DNA from: Longimicrobiales bacterium
GTDB taxonomy: Bacteria > Gemmatimonadota > Gemmatimonadetes > Longimicrobiales > Gaopeijiaceae
Direction: 5' to 3'
Assembly: GCA_965238005.1 (NCBI GenBank)
Contig: OZ250165.1
Location: 4,192,001 to 4,256,000, forward strand
Length of the DNA stretch: 64,000 nucleotides
Below, piece after piece: positions 55,875 through 64,000 of this stretch (its first letter is position 1; each line of letters begins with the position of its first letter). The notes below the pieces were generated by a model. That model was not told where the DNA came from and made no database searches. It was given only the letters and a program-made list of their open reading frames with translations. A program made the translations under genes and the position numbers.

Positions 55875-56174
55875 CTACATGTGGGGCTCGAACAAGATCG
55901 CGTGGACATCCGTGTCGCCGATGTTCTCCACAATGTGCGTCCAGGCCTCGTGATACATCACGTGTCCATCGGGGATCTCAGCCTCCATCGAGTCGTCACC
56001 CACGTAGATCCGCAACTTGCCACCCTTGATGAAGTAGACGGTCTCGTTGGGGTGCGAGTGCTCGTTGTCCTTGGCACCCGCGGGCAGGGTCATCTCCACG
56101 ACTCTGAGATGCTCGTTGGAGAAGAGGACTCGATAGTGCTCCGGGGAAACCTCACAGGGATCGACGTACGCCAC
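55875..56174 (-). CDS. Cupin domain protein
   Basis: HSHP...E, H..EN.G. Confidence 0.8.
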   Translation of the reverse strand: MAYVDPCEVSPEHYRVLFSNEHLRVVEMTLPAGAKDNEHSHPNETVYFIKGGKLRIYVGDDSMEAEIPDGHVMYHEAWTHIVENIGDTDVHAILFEPHM

Positions 56175-56474: not shown

Positions 56475-56840
56475 TCAGCCCGTTGCTTCCCGATCGAAAT
56501 CGGGGAACTCCGACTCGAAGTTCCGCACGATCTTCGCCACCTCGAATCCCGCGTCCTTCACGGTTTCCAGCAGCAGGTCGTTGGGGACGTCCACGTCTTG
56601 CTCCAGCGTCAGCGTCGCGAGCCCGGTGCTCAGCTCCACCTTCAGGTCCTCCACACCCTCGAGCCGCTGGAGCTTCTGCTGCACTCCATAGGCGCAGAAC
56701 GGGCAGCTCATCCCAAGGATGGTGACCTGGATCTGCCGCGGCGCGTGCTCCTGGGCCGCGGCCTCGTGTTGGGCCAGCACCGTCGGCGCTGCCGCGCCTA
56801 GCGCAAACGCCAGGGCAACTGCAGTTCGAAGCGCTTTCAT
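56475..56840 (-). CDS. Periplasmic heavy-metal-associated (MerP/CopZ-like) protein
   Basis: Signal peptide; GMSCPFC; DAGF. Confidence 0.88.
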   Translation of the reverse strand: MKALRTAVALAFALGAAAPTVLAQHEAAAQEHAPRQIQVTILGMSCPFCAYGVQQKLQRLEGVEDLKVELSTGLATLTLEQDVDVPNDLLLETVKDAGFEVAKIVRNFESEFPDFDREATG

Positions 56841-56907
56841 CGGTATTCTCCTGTGTTCCTGGTTTTCGAAATTCAGCAACTGCATCAACAATCCATCTGC
56901 TTACGGT

Positions 56908-57978
56908 TTACATCCCTGGTATCCCGGACATCCCCGACGGCTGGAACCAGTGGTGGAACCACGGCACGTCATTCGGTCTTAGGGTCGAGTGGATCAGCGT
57001 CTCGATCAGCTCCCGGAGGCCGACCGTCCCAGCGAGCCAATCCAGCCCCCACCACCACGCGGTGGCGACCAGCGCACCCGCCAAGAGAGCCACGACCAGC
57101 CAGACCACGACCTTCCTGCCCAATTCGACGCCGAGTAGCGCGAAGTAGCGCGGAAGCACAAAGGGCATGACCAGCGTTCCCAGGTAGAAGGCGGAAAGCC
57201 CTGAATACGTGATGAACTCCGCCTTCCACAGCCCGGCGGCGAAGAGCGCATTACCGACGAGTGGGGCACCCGTTACGTAGGCCAGAAGCAGCCCCACAGC
57301 GGCGTTGCCGACTTGAACCAGAGGCCCCTTTGAGCCCTGCAAGGAGATATAGGCGGTCGACTGCCCGAGGGCGAGAAAGAACCCGACCCCGAGGAGTCCG
57401 AAGACCATCGGCCACCAGAGCGAATAGACCTGTCCCACGAGGGACATGGGGAGCCGCGCCCAAACGGGTCCACGCCGGGCAATCGGCGGCGTGACGGTAT
57501 GGGGCAACTCCTTCGCGGCGCTCTCCCGCGCTGCTCGCCACAACCGCTCCGGCGTTCGCCGGAGCCCGTAGAGCAAAACCGCCAGTGCGGCGCCCACGGC
57601 AACGACCTGGCCGATTACCGGCTGAGGCCCATTCAGTTCGACGATGAGGACCAACAGCCAGATGAACAACGCCTGCGCCGAAACGAGGTACGCCATCACG
57701 CCCGCAGGGCTCACCCCGCGAGCCAGCAGCTCCCTCGCCTGCAGGAACATCCGGCTTCTGCTGGGCGGGCTCAGCACTCCGAGGACCACGGCGCGCCACA
57801 CCGTGCCCCAGCCGTCGTCCGGACGCTCCAGCAATCGTCGAAGCCGACCGCGGACCCAGAACGATTCGCTCAGCGCCGTCAGCACCACGGCCAGCCCCAA
57901 GATCCACCAGAACATGAAGATGAAGTGGCCGCCGGTGAGCGTCGCCCACTGCAACACGCTTTCTATGAAGGGTGGCAT
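56908..57978 (-). CDS. Polytopic permease, probably DUF318/ArsP-like, lacking cysteine
   Basis: About 8 TMs in two repeats; L.ARG.S...MAYLVS and VGN...AAGLW resemble DUF318. Confidence 0.55.
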   Translation of the reverse strand: MPPFIESVLQWATLTGGHFIFMFWWILGLAVVLTALSESFWVRGRLRRLLERPDDGWGTVWRAVVLGVLSPPSRSRMFLQARELLARGVSPAGVMAYLVSAQALFIWLLVLIVELNGPQPVIGQVVAVGAALAVLLYGLRRTPERLWRAARESAAKELPHTVTPPIARRGPVWARLPMSLVGQVYSLWWPMVFGLLGVGFFLALGQSTAYISLQGSKGPLVQVGNAAVGLLLAYVTGAPLVGNALFAAGLWKAEFITYSGLSAFYLGTLVMPFVLPRYFALLGVELGRKVVVWLVVALLAGALVATAWWWGLDWLAGTVGLRELIETLIHSTLRPNDVPWFHHWFQPSGMSGIPGM

Positions 57979-58019
57979 TTACTTCTCCCGCTATAGCTCT
58001 TCTCGCGTGATGCGAGTCT

Positions 58020-59048
58020 CTATCGAAAGACCGAGAACCGGACACGGGTGCCGAACTGGAACCGGCTGTCGTACTCGTGCTGGGTTCCGTTGAGGTCCTG
58101 CACGATGGGAAACTGGACCGAGCCCTCGAACAACAACCACGGTGTCGGAACCCACTGAAGATCCGGACTCAGGAACAGCAGGTGGCCTCCGGAGTCCGGA
58201 TCCGAGGCGCCGTCGACCTTGTTCCTCGCCGCTACCTCTCCGTTCAGCTCCAGGTAGAGGACGAACGTCTGGTCGGTGATGCTCTCGTAGACCCACGGAG
58301 CGAAGCGGAGGGCGGCGGCGACATCGTAGCTGAAGACATTGCCCGCTTTGAATCCGCCGTCCGTGGTCTTGATCCGGTAGCCCACGTTGGCCAGAAGCCC
58401 CTGGCGGCGCTGCGTCATGGTGAGCAGCGCCTTGAAGGGAAAGTCCCAGGCACCGGAACCCACCTGGAGCGGCCGTGGGGCGAGGGTGCCGTCAGGCAAC
58501 ATGGCGCTGGTCTTGCCCAAGGGAATCTTGACTCCGCCTTCGATCCCCAACCGCGTCGTGCCCCCCAGGCGGTTCTTGCTGAGGAAGATCCACTTGGTGT
58601 CCACGACCACGTCGCCCACCCCGTTGGTCGTATAGTTTAGGCGCCCGCCGTCAGGTGTCGTGAAGTCCATGGACTTGCGCACGAACGGCACGATCACACG
58701 CGTGGTCCACATGGGCGTGATGGCGAACGGCAGGACCGCTACCGGCTGAACGAAGACGTTGATGTCGCGCTCCATCGGGTCCGTGATCTCGTCTCCGTCC
58801 CGCAGCAGGCCGTACCGACCCAGGAATGATCCGAACGTACGTGCCGCGGATTCTTCGAAGCCGGTTGTGATCGCGGTCTCGGTGTGGAACGGCAGCGCCT
58901 GGGCTGAAAGGCCTGCGGAAGTCAGCAGGACTGCCGCCGACAGCCCCGCGACAAGCCCGGACGCCATTCGGACGCACGCGTTGTGACGTCCAGCGTGTTC
59001 CAGTTTGCCAGGGCCTGACCGCGTTCGATTGTTAACCATCGAATTCAT
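58020..59048 (-). CDS. Outer-membrane beta-barrel transporter (phenol MetA-like)
   Basis: Signal peptide; GVGDV, LQVGSGAWD, DSGG..LFLSP; C-terminal aromatic strand; start uncertain. Confidence 0.7.
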   Translation of the reverse strand: MNSMVNNRTRSGPGKLEHAGRHNACVRMASGLVAGLSAAVLLTSAGLSAQALPFHTETAITTGFEESAARTFGSFLGRYGLLRDGDEITDPMERDINVFVQPVAVLPFAITPMWTTRVIVPFVRKSMDFTTPDGGRLNYTTNGVGDVVVDTKWIFLSKNRLGGTTRLGIEGGVKIPLGKTSAMLPDGTLAPRPLQVGSGAWDFPFKALLTMTQRRQGLLANVGYRIKTTDGGFKAGNVFSYDVAAALRFAPWVYESITDQTFVLYLELNGEVAARNKVDGASDPDSGGHLLFLSPDLQWVPTPWLLFEGSVQFPIVQDLNGTQHEYDSRFQFGTRVRFSVFR

Positions 59049-59132
59049 CTAGCTCCACGTTACGTCGGTCGTACTCCACTGAAACTCCCCTGCAAGCACC
59101 GGCAAGCAGACGGGCTCCCTTGCGCTGCTGGC

Positions 59133-59164
59133 AAGGTAAACCTTAGAGCTTACTCCAAGGTAGA
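59133..59164 (-). promoter_or_regulatory. MerR-type promoter/operator for the channel-permease-HMA operon
   Basis: ACCTTAGAG-CTTA-CTCCAAGGT (59140-59161); TCTACC-N20-TACCTT on the minus strand. Confidence 0.72.
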
Positions 59165-59433
59165 GGCCCTGTCCGAACGCTGCTCGTGATGATCGTTCCC
59201 TACACCAGCGTCGCGTGGCTCGGGCAGGCCTCGGCCAGGCGTCGGACGACTGGCTTGCGCGAGAGCGTTCCGCCCACGGTTGTATGAGCAAGACGATGCA
59301 CGACGCGAGCGAGCCCGCGAGTAAGTGGTAGGGCGAAATGGCGATGTCTTCGGACGTGACTTCAAAGCCCTCTCCAGCCATCTCCAGCCATCTCCAGCCG
59401 AATCTTCAATTCACCTTCCAGAATCATCCTCAT
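59150..59433 (-). pseudogene. Degraded OsmC-like gene
   Basis: GAGG RBS and ATG; SPYHLLAGSLASC and, in another frame, LAEACPSHATL; 10-bp tandem duplication at 59371-59400 causes a frameshift. Confidence 0.65.
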
Positions 59434-59454
59434 TGCTCACCTCTCAGTTCTCAT

Positions 59455-61938
59455 TCACTCACGAACCGGCACATGGCCATTGCCATCGACGTGTTCGGTT
59501 CGCTGCACCCGGAAACCCGCGTTCGCCAACACTTCGGCGAGGCGCTCGCCGGCCTCCGCACCCCCCTCCCAGTCCACCCGTACCTCCTTGGTCTGAGGAT
59601 CCGCGGCCACGTCGGTCACTTCCTCGAGCCCGCCGAGGCGATCCTGGATGGTTCGGGCACAGCCCTCGCAGTGCATGTCCGGCACCTGAAGCAACAGCTT
59701 GGTCGGCGTCACTTCACGCTCGTCCGGTGGAGCCACCGGAGCTTCCTCCGCACCGTCAGCGCGACCTAGGAGCCTCCCCCAGAAGGAGTTTGCCAACACG
59801 GTGCTGACGCTCGCGACCATCGCGACCATCGCCCAGATGGGATGCACGACTCCCGTCGCGGCCAAGGGGATACCTACGCCGTTGAATGCGAACGCCAGGG
59901 TCAGGTTCTGCACGGTCTTCCGGTACGAGGTGCGACCGATGGCGATGGCGTCGCTCACCCCCTCTAGTCGGCTGTGGATGAGCACGACATCGGCCGACTC
60001 GATGGCGATGTCTGTCCCGGCACCGATCGCGATCCCCACGTCGGCCTGCGTGAGTGCCGGCGCGTCGTTGATCCCGTCGCCCACCATGGCCACGCGAACG
60101 CCGGTCGCCTGGAGCTCGCGGATCTTGGCCGCTTTCTCCTCGGGCAACACTTCGGCGATCACATTCTCGATCCCGATCTCGCGTGCCACGATGGCGGCTG
60201 TCTGCCGGTTGTCGCCGGTTAGCATCGTCGGCTCAATACCAGCCTGCTTCAGGCGCGTGATCGCCTCCGCGGCGCCGTCCTTGACCGTGTCGGCGATGGC
60301 AATGAGTCCGATGACCTGTCCGCTTCGCGCGACGCCTACGACGGTCTGCCCACGGCCCTCAAGCTCGTCGAGCGTCTCTCGGGCGCCGGCATGAAACTGG
60401 ACCTCGCGTTCTTCGAGCAGCTTGCGACATCCCACGACGATGCGTTCGCCGGCCACCTGGGCCACCACGCCCCGGCCGGTCACGGACTCGAACGAATCGG
60501 GCGCCTCAACGTCGAGGCCCCAGTGCTCGGCATGGGCCACAATCGCTTGGCCCAGGAAGTGTTCGGACAGCAGTTCGGCAGAGGCGGCCACGCCGAGGAC
60601 GTCGTGTCTCGACACGTCGCCAACGGCTACCACATCCACCACAGCGGGATCGCCCTCGGTAATGGTGCCGGTCTTATCCAGCACGACCGCGCTAACGTCT
60701 TTCATGATCTGGAACGCCTCGGCGCTCCGGATGAGCACGCCCCGCTCGGCGGCCAACCCGCCGCCGCGAATGAGCGCGAGTGGCGTCGCCATCCCGAGGG
60801 CGCACGGATAGCCCATGACCAACACGCTGAGCGCAGCGAAGATCGCTCGCGTCCAGTCCGGCGAGCCCATTACGATCCACGCGCCGGCGGTCCAGATGAG
60901 GAAGGCTAGGGCAGACACCGCCAGCACGCCGGGCACGAAGTACGTGAGGATCGCGTCGACGAGCTGAATGATGCCCGGCTTCATCGCGCGCGCTTCCTGC
61001 ACATGCTTGGCCACCCGGCGGAGGAAGGTCTCCTCGCCCACGCGGGTGACTTCGATCAGGAGCGAGCCGGCTTTATTCACCGAACCGCCGATCGCCTCAG
61101 CACCCGGCGCCTTCTCGACGGGCAGTGGCTCTCCGGTCACGATCGACTCGTCCACGGCGGAGAAACCGTCGACCACCTTCCCATCCCCGGGAATGCGCTC
61201 GCCCGGACGTACCCGCACGCGATCGCCCACCCGGATCTCTTCGATAGGGACCTCGATCTCGTCGCCGTCCCGGATCACGCGCGCCGTGTCCGGCTGGAGC
61301 TCCAGCAGCTTGCGCACAGCCTCCTGGCTCCGGGCCCGAACGGTGGTGGAGACGTAGCCACTCAGAAGGTGGTACGTCATGAGAAAGGTCGCGGCCACGA
61401 AGAAGTCGGCGGGAAAGGCGGGAGCAACGAATCCCAGCAACCCCGCGACGTAGGCACCCGACGCACCAAAGGACAGCAGCACGTGCTGGTTGAAGATCCG
61501 CCGCCGCAGGCTGCCCCACGCCATGCGGAGGACGTGCGAGCCCACCCCGAAGACGGCGACCGTCGCGATGGCGGCCTGAAGGATACGACTTCCCGGGAGG
61601 TGGACACCGAACCACATCAGCGCCATCAACACGATGGCGACTGTGGCAAGTGCGGCGTTCACAAAGAGCTTACGCCTCTCGCGCCGCAACTCCTCCTGCT
61701 GCTCTTCGTACGCCCGCACCCGGTTCGGATCTCGGACGGTGTAGCCCAGGTCGCGCAGCACGTCTTTCACACGTGCTTCATCGATTCGCTCGGCGTCGTA
61801 CTCGATCAGCGCCTCTTCGTGAGCCACGCTGACGGCGGCGTTCACGACCCCTTCCGTGTTCTCGAAGGCGCGGTGGATGCTCTCCTGGCAGAAGGAGCAG
61901 TGCATCCCGCCGACATTGATCTGCAGTTTGTTGGTCAT
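59455..61938 (-). CDS. Heavy-metal P1B-type ATPase with N- and C-terminal HMA domains and a YPC motif
   Basis: GMHCSFC, TGE, YPCALG, DKTGT, GDGINDAP, DMHCEGC. Confidence 0.95.
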   Translation of the reverse strand: MTNKLQINVGGMHCSFCQESIHRAFENTEGVVNAAVSVAHEEALIEYDAERIDEARVKDVLRDLGYTVRDPNRVRAYEEQQEELRRERRKLFVNAALATVAIVLMALMWFGVHLPGSRILQAAIATVAVFGVGSHVLRMAWGSLRRRIFNQHVLLSFGASGAYVAGLLGFVAPAFPADFFVAATFLMTYHLLSGYVSTTVRARSQEAVRKLLELQPDTARVIRDGDEIEVPIEEIRVGDRVRVRPGERIPGDGKVVDGFSAVDESIVTGEPLPVEKAPGAEAIGGSVNKAGSLLIEVTRVGEETFLRRVAKHVQEARAMKPGIIQLVDAILTYFVPGVLAVSALAFLIWTAGAWIVMGSPDWTRAIFAALSVLVMGYPCALGMATPLALIRGGGLAAERGVLIRSAEAFQIMKDVSAVVLDKTGTITEGDPAVVDVVAVGDVSRHDVLGVAASAELLSEHFLGQAIVAHAEHWGLDVEAPDSFESVTGRGVVAQVAGERIVVGCRKLLEEREVQFHAGARETLDELEGRGQTVVGVARSGQVIGLIAIADTVKDGAAEAITRLKQAGIEPTMLTGDNRQTAAIVAREIGIENVIAEVLPEEKAAKIRELQATGVRVAMVGDGINDAPALTQADVGIAIGAGTDIAIESADVVLIHSRLEGVSDAIAIGRTSYRKTVQNLTLAFAFNGVGIPLAATGVVHPIWAMVAMVASVSTVLANSFWGRLLGRADGAEEAPVAPPDEREVTPTKLLLQVPDMHCEGCARTIQDRLGGLEEVTDVAADPQTKEVRVDWEGGAEAGERLAEVLANAGFRVQRTEHVDGNGHVPVRE

Positions 61939-61969
61939 CAGACTCTCCCGGTCATTCCGACTTCTAGCC

Positions 61970-62001
61970 AATCTAAACCTTGGAGTTTACTCAAGAGTCA
62001 A
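61970..62001 (-). promoter_or_regulatory. MerR-type promoter of the ATPase
   Basis: TTGACT-N20-TAGATT with operator ACCTTGGAG-TTTA-CTCAAGAGT (61977-61998). Confidence 0.85.
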
Positions 62002-62057
62002 GGCCTCGCATGGACCTACAGATTGGGCCCCAGAGTCCCGCCCTTGCTGTCGTAATA

Positions 62058-62079
62058 ACCTTTGTGTATACTCCAAGGT
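62058..62079. promoter_or_regulatory. Third MerR operator, probably autoregulatory
   Basis: ACCTTTGTG-TATA-CTCCAAGGT upstream of the regulator gene. Confidence 0.7.
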
Positions 62080-62115
62080 TCTAAGATGCGTCGCGCTACA
62101 CTTGGAGGACACGAA

Positions 62116-62508
62116 ATGCGGATTGGAGAGCTCGCGAAGTCGGCGGGAGTGACTCCCGACACTATTAGGTATTACGAGCGTGAAGGACTGCTGCCTCTCG
62201 CAGACCGCACGCCGAGCGGTTACCGGGACTACGGGCTGGAGGTGGTCGACGACCTGCGATTCATCAAGAAGGCGCAAGCGCTAGGGCTCAAGCTGGGTGA
62301 CGTCCGCGAGGTCCTGGAAATCTCTGCGGGGGGGAAACCACCGTGCGAGCACGTGCGCGCGACCGTCAGCGCACGGCTCACGGAGGTAGAGCAGCGGCTA
62401 AAGGACCTCAGGGCGCTGCGCTCAACGCTGCGCGAGACGCTGGAACGCCTCGATCGTGCGCCGCCGCCAAAGGCAGGATGCCGCTGCGCGGTGATCGAAT
62501 CGGCTTAG
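62116..62508 (+). CDS. Metal-responsive MerR-family regulator
   Basis: MRIGELAK...TIRYYE..GLL...GYR.Y; C77, C122, C124; GGAGG RBS. Confidence 0.93.
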   Translation: MRIGELAKSAGVTPDTIRYYEREGLLPLADRTPSGYRDYGLEVVDDLRFIKKAQALGLKLGDVREVLEISAGGKPPCEHVRATVSARLTEVEQRLKDLRALRSTLRETLERLDRAPPPKAGCRCAVIESA

Positions 62509-62526: not shown

Positions 62527-64000
62527 CTACATGGTCACCTCCCTCCTCCGCCACAGGTAGTACAGCACCGGAATCACCAGCAACGTGAGCACCGACGAGG
62601 TGATCATGCCCCCGATCATCGGGGCGGCGATCCTCTGTATGACGGACGCTCCCGACCCGTGAGCCCACATGAGGGGAAGCAGTCCGGCAACGATGGCGGC
62701 GACGGTCATGAGCACGGGTCGAACCCGCCCCACGGCTCCTTCCCTGATGGCGGCCATCAGCCCCTCGATGCCCACCGGCCCCGAGACTGTGGCCTGGCTC
62801 CAGGCCTGATCCAGGTACAGGAGCATCACCACACCGGTCTGCGCCGCGAGACCCCCCAATGCGATGAAGCCGACCGCCACGGCTACCGAGAAATCATAGT
62901 CCAGTACCCACATGAGCCATACGCCTCCAACCAGCGCGAAGGGTAGGGAGAACATGACGATTCCCACTTCGGCCATATTGAGAAAGTTGAAGTAGAGCAG
63001 CAGCGCTATGATCCCCAGCGTGACCGGAACCATGATCATCAGTCGCGCCTTGACTCGCTCCATCGCCTCGTACTGCCCGCTCCACTCAAGGCGGTAACCA
63101 GCGGGCAGGGTGAGTCGCTCGTCGACCAGGCGGCGCGCTTCCGCCACGTAGCTGCCCACATCGCGATCACGCACGTCGATGAACACCATCCCGACGAGCT
63201 GTCCGTTCTCGCTCTTGATCACCGGAGCACCGGCGCTGAATCCCACTTCGGCGAGCTGGCTCAGGGACACCTGCGGTCCGGCCGGCGTGGCCACGAGCAC
63301 CTGGCTGAGGCGGGAGAGGTCGTCGCGTAATTCCCGAGCATACCTCACCTGCACCGGATACCGTTCTCGCCCTTCCACCGTCGTCGTCACGTTCCGGCCT
63401 CCCACAGCCGTCGCGACCACGTTCTGAACGTCTCCCACACTCAGGCCGTATCGTGCCAACGCCTTCCTGTCCGGCCGGATATCGAGGTAGCGGCCGCCAA
63501 AGGACCGTTCCGCGAAGATGCTGGCGGTTCCCTCCAGCGGCGCGAGCAACGCTTCGATTTCAGCTCCGACGGCTTGGATGGTCACGAGGTCCGGCCCGAA
63601 CACCTTGACTCCCAGCGTGGTGCGGATGCCGGTCGAGAGCATGTCGGTCCGGTTCTTGATGGGCATCGTCCAGCTGTTGATCAGCCCGGTGAAACGAAGC
63701 TCTCGGTCCATCTTGGCGATGAGCTGCTCCTGGGTGAGCCGTTCGGGCCACTCGGCGGGGTCTTTGAGGTTGACGATGGTCTCCACCATGGAGAGAGGCG
63801 CCGGGTCGGTGGCGGAGTTCACCCGGCCCACCTTCCCCCAGACCGACTCCACTTCGGGAAAGGTCATCAGAATACTGTCTTGACGCTGTAGTAGCCGCCT
63901 TTGCTCGCCAATGGAGATGCCCGGGATCGAGTTGGGCATGTACATGAGCGATCCCTCGTCGAGCGGGGGCATGAACTCGCTCCCCAGGCGCGTGAGCGGC
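62527..64000 (-). CDS. cusA: CusA/SilA-type heavy-metal RND efflux permease (5' end outside the window)
   Basis: EFMPPLDEG, DPAPLSMVET, MPIKNRTDML.TG, RVRPVLMT, IAAPMIGG. Confidence 0.9.
   Translation of the reverse strand, partial: PLTRLGSEFMPPLDEGSLMYMPNSIPGISIGEQRRLLQRQDSILMTFPEVESVWGKVGRVNSATDPAPLSMVETIVNLKDPAEWPERLTQEQLIAKMDRELRFTGLINSWTMPIKNRTDMLSTGIRTTLGVKVFGPDLVTIQAVGAEIEALLAPLEGTASIFAERSFGGRYLDIRPDRKALARYGLSVGDVQNVVATAVGGRNVTTTVEGRERYPVQVRYARELRDDLSRLSQVLVATPAGPQVSLSQLAEVGFSAGAPVIKSENGQLVGMVFIDVRDRDVGSYVAEARRLVDERLTLPAGYRLEWSGQYEAMERVKARLMIMVPVTLGIIALLLYFNFLNMAEVGIVMFSLPFALVGGVWLMWVLDYDFSVAVAVGFIALGGLAAQTGVVMLLYLDQAWSQATVSGPVGIEGLMAAIREGAVGRVRPVLMTVAAIVAGLLPLMWAHGSGASVIQRIAAPMIGGMITSSVLTLLVIPVLYYLWRRREVTM

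Follow-up and report, generated by a model that had tools for sequence, protein, structure and literature searches.

A conserved MerR-type regulon with a Y-P-C ATPase in Gemmatimonadota that looks like an accessory arm of mercury resistance

Overview

The subject of this report is a cluster of metal-handling genes at positions 56475-62508 of a 64,000-nucleotide stretch (hereafter the window) of the genome of a Longimicrobiales bacterium of the phylum Gemmatimonadota (contig OZ250165.1, positions 4,192,001 to 4,256,000). It contains a MerR-family sensor gene (merR), a gene for a P1B-type ATPase of a clade with the motif Y-P-C, and an operon that encodes an outer-membrane beta-barrel, an inner-membrane permease and a periplasmic heavy-metal-associated (HMA) domain protein, and it carries three operator-like dyads. 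The sequence-only reading of this DNA had proposed such an arrangement of one MerR, three operators, an atypical ATPase and an envelope operon, and it is borne out, as the genes and dyads are conserved together in related genomes; in this genome and in others they also lie near mer genes. With a probability of roughly 0.55, the set is a MerR-type metal-activated regulon that forms an accessory transport arm of mercury resistance, exporting metal and handling it across the envelope. The metal would most likely be Hg(II), perhaps together with other thiophilic divalent ions.

Operators and promoters

The dyad ACCTTGGAG-N4-CTCCAAGGT (9-4-9) has three matches in the window, at 59140-59161, 61977-61998 and 62058-62079, the places where the sequence-only reading had put its operators. 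They carry one, three and two mismatches, respectively, and therefore no copy among the three is perfect. In 100 dinucleotide-preserving shuffles of the window the mean number of matches was 0.01, and three matches were reached in none. A scan of the 4.84-Mb genome, which that reading had called for, found at up to three mismatches only three extra sites, each with three mismatches and a G+C-rich centre, so the motif is confined to this locus; the reversed pattern, used as a control on the same genome, gave one match per strand.

Two of the dyads lie in minus-strand promoters with 20-bp spacers, as had been claimed, one before the barrel-permease-HMA operon and one before the ATPase gene. The first (59133..59164) reads TCTACC-20 bp-TACCTT, with its boxes at 59164-59159 and 59138-59133 upstream of the barrel gene. 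The second (61970..62001) reads TTGACT-20 bp-TAGATT, with boxes at 62001-61996 and 61975-61970 and the dyad contained in the spacer, and lies 32 bp upstream of the likely ATPase start codon (ATG at 61938, preceded by GGGAGAG). Both thus have the dyad within a 19-20-bp spacer that marks promoters of the MerR family, and the proposed likeness to the ZntR-controlled promoter PzntA of Escherichia coli also holds, since a 22-bp dyad in a 20-bp spacer is described for that system (PMC1526738). The arms found here differ at two positions each from the ZntR consensus ACTCTGGAG-N4-CTCCAGAGT given there. This resemblance favors a rival explanation in which the set would be a ZntR- or CadR-like regulon for the efflux of Zn(II), Cd(II) or Pb(II), with the Y-P-C ATPase standing in for the ZntA/CadA that is absent from the genome; the features of the pump discussed below make it unlikely.

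The third dyad overlaps the -10 box of a plus-strand promoter (TTGCTG-17 bp-TATACT at 62044-62072; 62044..62079 with the dyad), outside any minus-strand promoter and 37 bp before the likely merR start (62116, MRIGELA). By analogy with the classical merR promoter, which is overlapped by its operator, this site may serve in autorepression. A generic promoter scan considered 16-18-bp spacers only and is therefore blind to promoters of the MerR type; it found one unrelated site, before a cupin gene, and terminator-like sites were at chance level. That cupin gene (55875-56174) was rejected as a member of the operon, as a separate promoter-like site precedes it and relatives show no conservation of it, and a 110-amino acid open reading frame (ORF) at 59049-59381 was rejected as a gene, as it overlaps the promoter. 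Three tandem copies of the 10-mer TGGCTGGAGA lie on the minus strand at 59371-59400, just 3' of the ATPase stop codon, in the 400-bp gap that precedes the barrel operon.

Conservation in Gemmatimonadota

A scan of species genomes gave 24 Gemmatimonadota loci (L numbers denote loci and G numbers genomes). The barrel gene is upstream of the permease gene in all 21 loci that hold upstream DNA, and the HMA gene is downstream of it in 22 of the 23 that hold downstream DNA, the exception (L028) being a contig end with only 81 residues of the permease. All five genes, in the order merR, ATPase, barrel, permease, HMA, are present in seven loci. The sequence-only reading had counted a failure of these genes to co-occur elsewhere as an argument against itself; that objection falls because the genes and dyads are conserved together in relatives.

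The operators follow the genes. In L005, L006, L008, L010, L011, L014 and L015 the interval between merR and the ATPase gene holds one or two dyads, and in all of these, as well as in L043 and L127, the sequence before the ATPase gene has the form cTTGAC-dyad-TTA[GC]NTT. The barrel gene of L008, L010 and L011 is preceded by a dyad with cTTGACC and TTAC[GC]TT boxes, and the merR-proximal dyad lies over a TTGC[AT]G-16/17 bp-TA[TCG][AC]CT promoter in L006, L010, L014 and L015. In L018 a dyad with the cTTGACC and TTAC[GC]TT boxes lies between merR and barrel genes that face each other, with no ATPase gene between them. The cassette of barrel, ArsP-like permease and secreted HMA protein appears to be specific to Gemmatimonadota, and its combination with three operators and a C-R-C-type sensor is particular to this window. 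The copy in G142 (L006:4481-7959) looks worn, with YSFC rather than CSFC at the N-terminal HMA site, ...GMATS rather than ...GMATP in the fourth transmembrane helix (TM4) of the ATPase, and an in-frame stop in the barrel gene.

Linkage of the cassette to mer genes

In its own genome the cassette lies 8.5 kb, measured from the ATPase gene, from a gene for MerA (551.6 bits, cut-off 454.45) with a YHS-type N-terminus and 11 kb from one for MerT (PF02411, 68.1 bits), which is outside the window; seen from the cassette, merA and merT lie beyond a cusCBA-like operon and an ABC-2 transporter. In G070 (L127), merA (88% identity) directly follows an orthologue (85%) of the C-R-C regulator gene; two dyads separate this merR-merA pair from the ATPase gene, which is divergent to it. 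L068 has merT-merA in divergent orientation to a row of genes for the C-R-C regulator, permease, HMA protein, barrel and ATPase. MerA, an HMA protein and MerT are encoded 1.5 kb downstream of the cassette in L005, MerA is encoded nearby in L014 and MerB in L016. The earlier statement that the gene set is not recognizable as mer, cop, cad, pbr or znt holds in so far as no paper describing it was found in the literature searched, but the set is tied to mer genes in its own genome, in G070 and in L068, and in other phyla its ATPase clade is found inside mer operons.

Several features of these mer neighborhoods deserve mention in their own right. At L039:10089-12004 (G000:C1 ~4265089-4267004), outside the window, a DDE transposase gene (PF01609) stands immediately upstream of merT, and no regulator gene was seen beside merT-merA in this genome, so an insertion sequence may have displaced the merT-merA regulator. 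In the interval from merA to the ABC-2 permease gene, the gene for an ABC ATPase (L039:6431-7363) is split into ORFs of 193 and 104 amino acids, which could be a frameshift or a sequencing error. In the MerA proteins of L039:7390-9192 and L014:14234-16033 an N-terminal Cys-rich YHS-type domain replaces the usual HMA domain (NmerA); the MerA of L005 has the HMA (NmerA) form. Genes of the CsoR family (Trns_repr_metal) adjoin merT-HMA-merA in L005 (14303-14833) and the Y-P-C ATPase gene in L025 (1858-2160) and may regulate these modules.

Linkage of the Y-P-C ATPase clade to mer genes

A metagenome scan with the Y-P-C segment of the ATPase found at least 481 relatives, and 80 loci were kept. A MerA above the cut-off is encoded within 10 kb of the ATPase in 14 of the 80; counted by available flank, this was so in 13 of 44 loci with at least 6 kb and in 8 of 19 with at least 15 kb. 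Label-free clustering of all flanking ORFs across 67 dereplicated groups gave as recurrent neighbors MerR-family regulators (47 groups), DUF7482 (34), two clusters of CcdA/DsbD-like proteins (18 and 16), MerA-type proteins (17), thioredoxin-like proteins (11), ABC ATPases (9), MerT (8) and, in seven groups each, MacB/FtsX, Phenol_MetA_deg and DedA. The Phenol_MetA_deg barrel family, with its seven of 67 groups, recurs beside Y-P-C pumps outside Gemmatimonadota. The recurrent clusters that could be annotated include no copper-specific family; a number of smaller ones matched nothing in Pfam. Linkage at the level of the operon is seen in L109, with the order merR-merA-ATPase and a 92-bp gap, and in L093 and L113, and in Haloarcula pNG600 an annotated merA lies 2 kb from a Y-P-C ATPase gene. 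The regulators that adjoin Y-P-C ATPases have a MerR-, ZntR- or CadR-type model as their best match, never CueR, and none passes a cut-off.

A rough control within the phylum points the same way. It covered 301 Gemmatimonadota genomes (the unpublished G057, G097, G157 and G182 are included in the tallies), 32 of which have a MerA above the cut-off, and drew on the 150 of 643 ATPase matches listed, with motifs read for the Y-P-C pumps. Seven Y-P-C pumps were identified among the matches listed, five of them with at least 58% identity and two from a deeper GYPCALG[IL]TTP clade. Four (in G000, G070, G074 and G092) lie within 10 kb of MerA; of the other three, two are on short contigs and one (G142) is in a genome without MerA. 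Among the other P1B ATPases listed (from the same 150 of 643), the nearest to MerA is 12.9 kb away.

These associations invite a wider proposal, that Y-P-C ATPases are the missing ATP-driven mercury transporters, a clade in bacteria and haloarchaea that would pump Hg(II) or Hg-thiolate out of the cytoplasm, and to which Gemmatimonadota would have added a carrier, a permease and a channel, giving trans-envelope efflux beside or without MerA. It is possible, but we put it forward only tentatively.

Members of the deeper clade, L126:3123-5462 (G092) and L125:3139-5490 (G074), show 38-39% identity, have HMA domains at both ends and lie beside merR-merA(-merT); a dyad resembling those of the window is present at 5631 of L126 (cTTGACTCTGGAGCGCGCTCTATGGTGTACTC). 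Genes for flavin adenine dinucleotide-dependent disulfide oxidoreductases that are not MerA by score adjoin Y-P-C ATPase genes at L099:5934-7415, L101:11484-12965 and L083:5710-7113, and have a single in-frame stop near the N-terminus, for which selenocysteine and a broken gene are both possible. MerR-family regulators fused to a C-terminal HMA domain are encoded at L113:5900-6577 and L073:7367-8023, upstream of genes for a CcdA-like protein and a Y-P-C ATPase; the L073 copy has an in-frame stop. The protein calls P0122 (1039 amino acids) and P0131 (872 amino acids) join a Y-P-C ATPase and a Phenol_MetA_deg barrel; these fusions are probably read-through calls, yet they reflect the same adjacency in other assemblies.

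The regulator

The merR gene (62116..62508, plus strand) encodes a protein of 130 amino acids from MRIGELA that belongs to the MerR family (COG0789), with scores above the cut-offs for Pfam MerR_1 (PF13411, 69.8 bits), MerR-DNA-bind (PF09278, 62.8 bits) and MerR (PF00376, 59.2 bits). It falls short of the models for individual metals, scoring 101.6 bits with that for Hg(II) MerR (TIGR02051, cut-off 150.85), 97.5 and 100.7 with those for ZntR (TIGR02043, cut-off 167.95, and PRK09514, cut-off 143) and 83.2, lower than either, with that for CueR. The tie between its MerR and ZntR scores is a further point for a zinc-type regulon. Its closest solved relative is the Bacillus MerR bound to Hg (4ua1, E 7e-21); Cys76 of the regulator aligns with Cys79 of 4ua1 and the second Cys of its C-R-C with Cys123, whereas the position of Cys114 is Ala. 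There are thus three Cys residues, but in place of the C-x8-C loop the C-terminal part reads G-C-R-C-A-V-I-E. A Cys at this position of the long helix is the mark of divalent-metal sensors, while monovalent-metal sensors have Ser. The motifs PCEH and GCRC are kept in all eight complete cassette-linked orthologues and are also found in the regulators of the metagenome loci L043, L052, L063, L068 and L090.

The Y-P-C ATPase

The ATPase gene (59455..61938, minus strand) encodes a P1B-type pump with an HMA domain at its N-terminus and another at its C-terminus (CSFC and CEGC). Cu(I)-ATPases of the P1B-1 type have C-P-C in TM4, Y-N in TM5 and M-x2-S-S in TM6; the window's ATPase, like all orthologues read, has instead YPC (GYPCALGMATP), FN and M-V-A-S-V-S (M-x2-S-V-S). 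The Zn/Cd/Pb-ATPases of the P1B-2 type have CPC, a Lys in TM5 and an Asp in TM6, and the corresponding segments here, QNLTLAFAFNGVGIP and PIWAMVAMVASVSTVLANS, hold no such Lys or Asp. Its best match among solved chains is CopA of Archaeoglobus fulgidus (3j09, E 3.9e-155), in which CPC aligns with YPC and YN with FN. It passes the copper subfamily model TIGR01511 (478.4, cut-off 397) and, on the Zn/Cd/Pb side, the broader subfamily model TIGR01512 (381.7, cut-off 313.5), but not the equivalog models for CopA (PRK10671, 489.8, cut-off 1316) or ZntA (NF033775, 376.4, cut-off 1240). YPC was found by pattern in 115 of the 120 best homologues, the other five failing the pattern match, and the source names of the Y-P-C homologues include Binatia, Deltaproteobacteria and Bacteroidota. 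The best plasmid matches are pDEIPE01 of Deinococcus peraridilitoris, a Leisingera plasmid and about 20 haloarchaeal plasmids, with YPC in all three plasmid-borne sequences that were read. The sole other P1B ATPase of the genome is a canonical CopA (CPC, YN, MSLSS), 35 kb away.

These features bear on both of the alternatives in which the metal is not mercury. For Zn(II), Cd(II) or Pb(II) it can be said that the genome has no second divalent-type P1B ATPase, that several regulators adjoining Y-P-C ATPases have ZntR or CadR-PbrR as their best model and that a CusA/CzcA-family pump gene is adjacent to the cassette. The Asn in TM5 and the Met and Ser residues in TM6 are nevertheless of the P1B-1 type, the ZntA score is far below its cut-off, and the recurrent neighbors are MerA, MerT, CcdA-like and thioredoxin-like proteins rather than zinc or cadmium genes.

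The other alternative is a Cu(I)/Ag(I)/Au(I) system of the CueR-CopA or Salmonella Gol kind, with a MerR-type sensor and its operators, a pump, a chaperone and a nearby resistance-nodulation-division (RND) transporter. It would account for the ATPase being nearest to CopA, for CopZ being the best model for the periplasmic HMA protein, for the adjacent CusA-family gene and for the CsoR and DUF411 genes beside the cassette in L025. Two residues that bind Cu(I) in CopA, the leading Cys of CPC and the YN Tyr, are however both replaced in every orthologue. A canonical CopA is already encoded elsewhere in the genome, the Cys of the regulator is at a position held by Ser in sensors of monovalent metals, no regulator of the clade has CueR as its best model, and the annotated recurrent neighbors include no copper-specific family. 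A metagenomic Y-P-C ATPase with HMA domains at both ends did change copper handling in E. coli lacking copA, but it lowered copper resistance while raising copper content (PMC11082258). Taken together, these observations leave a copper-type system quite improbable.

The envelope operon

The last gene of the operon (56475..56840, minus strand) encodes a protein with a signal peptide (MKALRTAVALAFALGAAAPTVLAQ), the motif GMSCPFC and a conserved tail of acidic and aromatic residues, RNFESEFPDF. It is an HMA protein by Pfam (35.5 bits, cut-off 24.8), and its scores with the NCBIfam models for CopZ (41.6) and MerP (TIGR02052, 31.6, cut-off 92.55) are both far under the cut-offs; comparison with solved chains found generic HMA domains alone and did not tell MerP and CopZ apart. 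In an alignment of 20 rows C22, P23, F24 and C25 are invariant, and GMSCPFC and the tail RNFESE[FY]PDF are kept.

The permease (56908..57978, minus strand; 356 amino acids) has no Cys and matches no Pfam family above threshold, its score with ArsP_1 (PF03773) being 17.1 bits against a gathering threshold of 32.3 (E 0.003). It can nevertheless be regarded as a divergent relative of ArsP_1 (UPF0718), because all 30 of its 30 matches in the ESM Atlas are ArsP_1 (best score 0.94) and because some of the 104 clusters of its homologues carry PF03773; the source names of these clusters are all of Gemmatimonadota type or generic. An AlphaFold2 (AF2) model of the permease (predicted local distance difference test, pLDDT, 78.5; predicted template modelling score 0.80) was aligned to solved chains with VIA-align, on which the fold assignment rests. 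The top 13 chains (Z 12.6-7.2; the next row has Z 4.3) are all elevators of the Ion-Transporter superfamily, namely YdaH (Z 12.6), INDY (VcINDY, 11.6), ArsB (10tp_A, 11.5), DiT1 (7.2), SLC13, TRAP-QM, CNT and Pho90; a Foldseek search of the model against the PDB gave no match at E <= 0.001. The predicted fold is thus of the elevator type, with helical hairpins at residues 57-86 and 240-270. The invariant residues S70-P72-R74 and P239-G242-N243, in two helical hairpins, may form the substrate site, and the Arg suggests an anionic or complexed substrate. The protein does not fit the description of MerT (PF02411), which is a small three-helix protein with Cys pairs.

The barrel gene (58020..58967, minus strand) lies in an ORF that is open to 59048, and its likely start is at the signal peptide MASGL.... 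Its product is a member of the Phenol_MetA_deg family (PF13557, 36.2 bits, cut-off 22; COG4313); its AF2 model has about 12 strands at low confidence (pLDDT 52.5), and its sequence found no match at E <= 1 among solved chains.

A predicted complex of the HMA protein with the permease scored 0.46, where the best of three controls scored 0.01; the runs agreed in at least 51% of contacts and the partners had pLDDT of at least 74. Of 157 solved complexes 116 reach the mark for such predictions, as do 2 of 215 mismatched pairs, and the passing scores at or below 0.60 comprise only 18 of the 157 solved complexes plus both passing mismatches; these counts apply only roughly here, as the prediction used custom alignments. 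The model thus lends weak support to a contact between the two proteins.

What these envelope proteins are for depends on the direction of transport. The sequence-only reading invoked the uptake logic of MerP and MerT. On a rival explanation along these lines, barrel, permease and periplasmic HMA protein (perhaps with the ATPase) would import Hg(II) or organomercury and feed it to MerA. The adjacent mer genes fit such a route, as do MerB genes near Y-P-C or cassette loci (L016, L064 and L083) and two loci (L109 and L079) with MerA and a Y-P-C ATPase and no match to MerT. A COG4313 channel has been solved, and its family is implicated in the uptake of hydrophobic molecules (PMC4493636); the Y-P-C clone mentioned above raised the metal content of E. 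coli (PMC11082258). The permease, on the other hand, is Cys-free and not MerT-like, with a fold of the ArsB/INDY elevator type. To our knowledge ArsP, an exporter with a vicinal Cys pair, is the only characterized member of its Pfam family, and we know of no well-characterized P1B pump that does not export. The genome, moreover, already has merT, and G142 retains the cassette without MerA, although with signs of decay. An uptake route is therefore possible but doubtful.

The adjacent RND pump

A CusA/CzcA-type RND gene adjoins merR in convergent orientation and ends 19 bp from the merR stop codon. It belongs to a CusC-CusB-CusA/CzcA-type operon (window 62527-64000 and L039:1-5104, minus strand), which shares its strand with merT-merA and the ABC-2 genes. 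The genome scan at up to three mismatches found no operator dyad near this operon. The earlier picture of an exporter beside a CusA pump is accurate as to position, but the pump was rejected as a member of the regulon on account of this convergent orientation and the lack of a dyad. In place of the convergent RND gene, L014 has an OEP gene that comes after merR in the same orientation.

Weighing the mercury reading

A number of observations weigh against a role in mercury resistance. The regulator is below every NCBIfam equivalog cut-off, with MerR (101.6) and ZntR (100.7) tied, and its C-x-C loop is unlike the C-x8-C of characterized Hg sensors. Canonical Hg-type MerR paralogues adjoin merTA in L014 and L068, so the C-R-C regulator may sense something else. 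The ATPase is nearest to Cu(I) pumps, and the Y-P-C clone, whose kinship to the window's ATPase is unverified, fits neither simple efflux nor mercury (PMC11082258). A permease without cysteine is an odd partner for a hand-off of Hg(II). No dyad (up to three mismatches) lies near merT or merA in this genome, the complete genome G142 carries the cassette with no MerA at E <= 1e-120, and the cassette of L025 is flanked by CsoR and DUF411 genes. Since metal islands cluster unrelated systems, part of the mer linkage may also be an island effect.

What the sequences show is the anatomy of the set, its conservation and its tie to mer genes; which metal is sensed, that the regulator activates and which way each transport step runs are inferred, and on the mercury reading these would combine as follows. 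Without metal the regulator would sit on the three dyads, two in over-spaced (20-bp) promoters and the third over its own -10. Metal would be bound by a three-Cys site made up of Cys76 of one subunit and the C-R-C of the other, and the metal-bound regulator would remodel the two promoters with 20-bp spacers and so induce both the pump gene and the envelope operon with its three genes. The Y-P-C ATPase would take cytoplasmic metal via its two cytosolic HMA domains and pump it into the periplasm. There the periplasmic HMA protein would bind it, and the metal or a metal-thiol complex would cross the envelope through the joint work of this protein, the elevator-type permease and the COG4313-type barrel. 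That the envelope proteins work in export comes close to even odds without reaching them; that they work in uptake towards MerA seems rather unlikely, and a sizeable share of the probability goes to neither.

Textbook mercury resistance consists of uptake and reduction. If the mercury reading is right, this paradigm would gain a transport arm in the form of an uncharacterized ATPase clade that is built into mer operons in several phyla and that here comes with a sensor variant of its own, three operators and a set of partners spanning the envelope. Y-P-C/F-N would then be a handle by which to re-annotate thousands of genes called copper ATPases, a rule for metal selectivity in P1B pumps and MerR sensors (Cys plus C-x-C) could be proposed, and new parts for mercury biosensing and bioremediation would be at hand. 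Two reviews state that mer is unlike other metal systems in using no ATPase pumps (PMC11227200, PMC12195606), and the words "ATPase" and "efflux" are absent from Christakis et al. 2021 (PMC8261052). A literature search that left subscription journals outside its scope found no paper on the gene set or on a mercury role for Y-P-C pumps. The set looks like an undescribed accessory arm of mercury resistance.

Comparison with known systems

The ZntR/PzntA system of E. coli has the same 9-4-9 dyad in a 20-bp spacer with a very similar half-site, and its regulator likewise activates a P1B ATPase (PMC1526738). Here, in contrast, the ATPase is without the P1B-2 signature, and there are two further operators, an envelope operon and mer neighbors. 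With the P1B-1 pumps CopA of A. fulgidus (3j09) and Legionella pneumophila (3rfu) the window's ATPase shares the eight-helix P1B architecture and DKTGT, as well as HMA domains at both ends in the case of the A. fulgidus protein, its best sequence match, and it passes the subfamily model. It differs from them in the changes CPC to YPC, YN to FN and MxxSS to MxxSVS, which are conserved across the clade, and in having mer, CcdA and thioredoxin genes as partners rather than cop or cus genes.

The Gol regulon of Salmonella (GolS, GolT, GolB and GesABC) is similar in that one MerR-type sensor acts at several operators and is accompanied by a P1B pump, a small HMA protein and an RND pump nearby. GolS, however, is a monovalent-metal sensor of the CueR type, GolB is cytoplasmic and the regulon has no barrel or permease; at the RND operon of the present genome, on the other hand, no operator was found. 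The permease resembles the ArsP and ArsB permeases in that its nearest Pfam family is ArsP_1 and that ArsB (10tp_A, Z 11.5) is among the elevators to which its model aligns, but it is under the Pfam threshold, lacks the Cys pair of ArsP and is flanked by barrel and secreted HMA genes.

The classical mer operons (merR-merTP(C)A(D) of Tn21 and Tn501, and Bacillus mer) offer several parallels, namely a MerR-family sensor with Cys at the C79/C82 position, a dyad in an over-spaced promoter, a divergent merR promoter overlapped by the operator, a secreted CxxC HMA protein comparable to MerP, and physical linkage to merA and merT. The differences are that merA and merT appear to lie outside the regulon in this genome (in G070, merA directly follows the orthologous merR), that the regulator has C-x-C rather than C-x8-C and is under the TIGR02051 cut-off, that the HMA protein is under the MerP cut-off (31.6 versus 92.55), and that classical mer genes encode none of the cargo proteins here (P-type ATPase, COG4313 barrel, ArsP-like permease).

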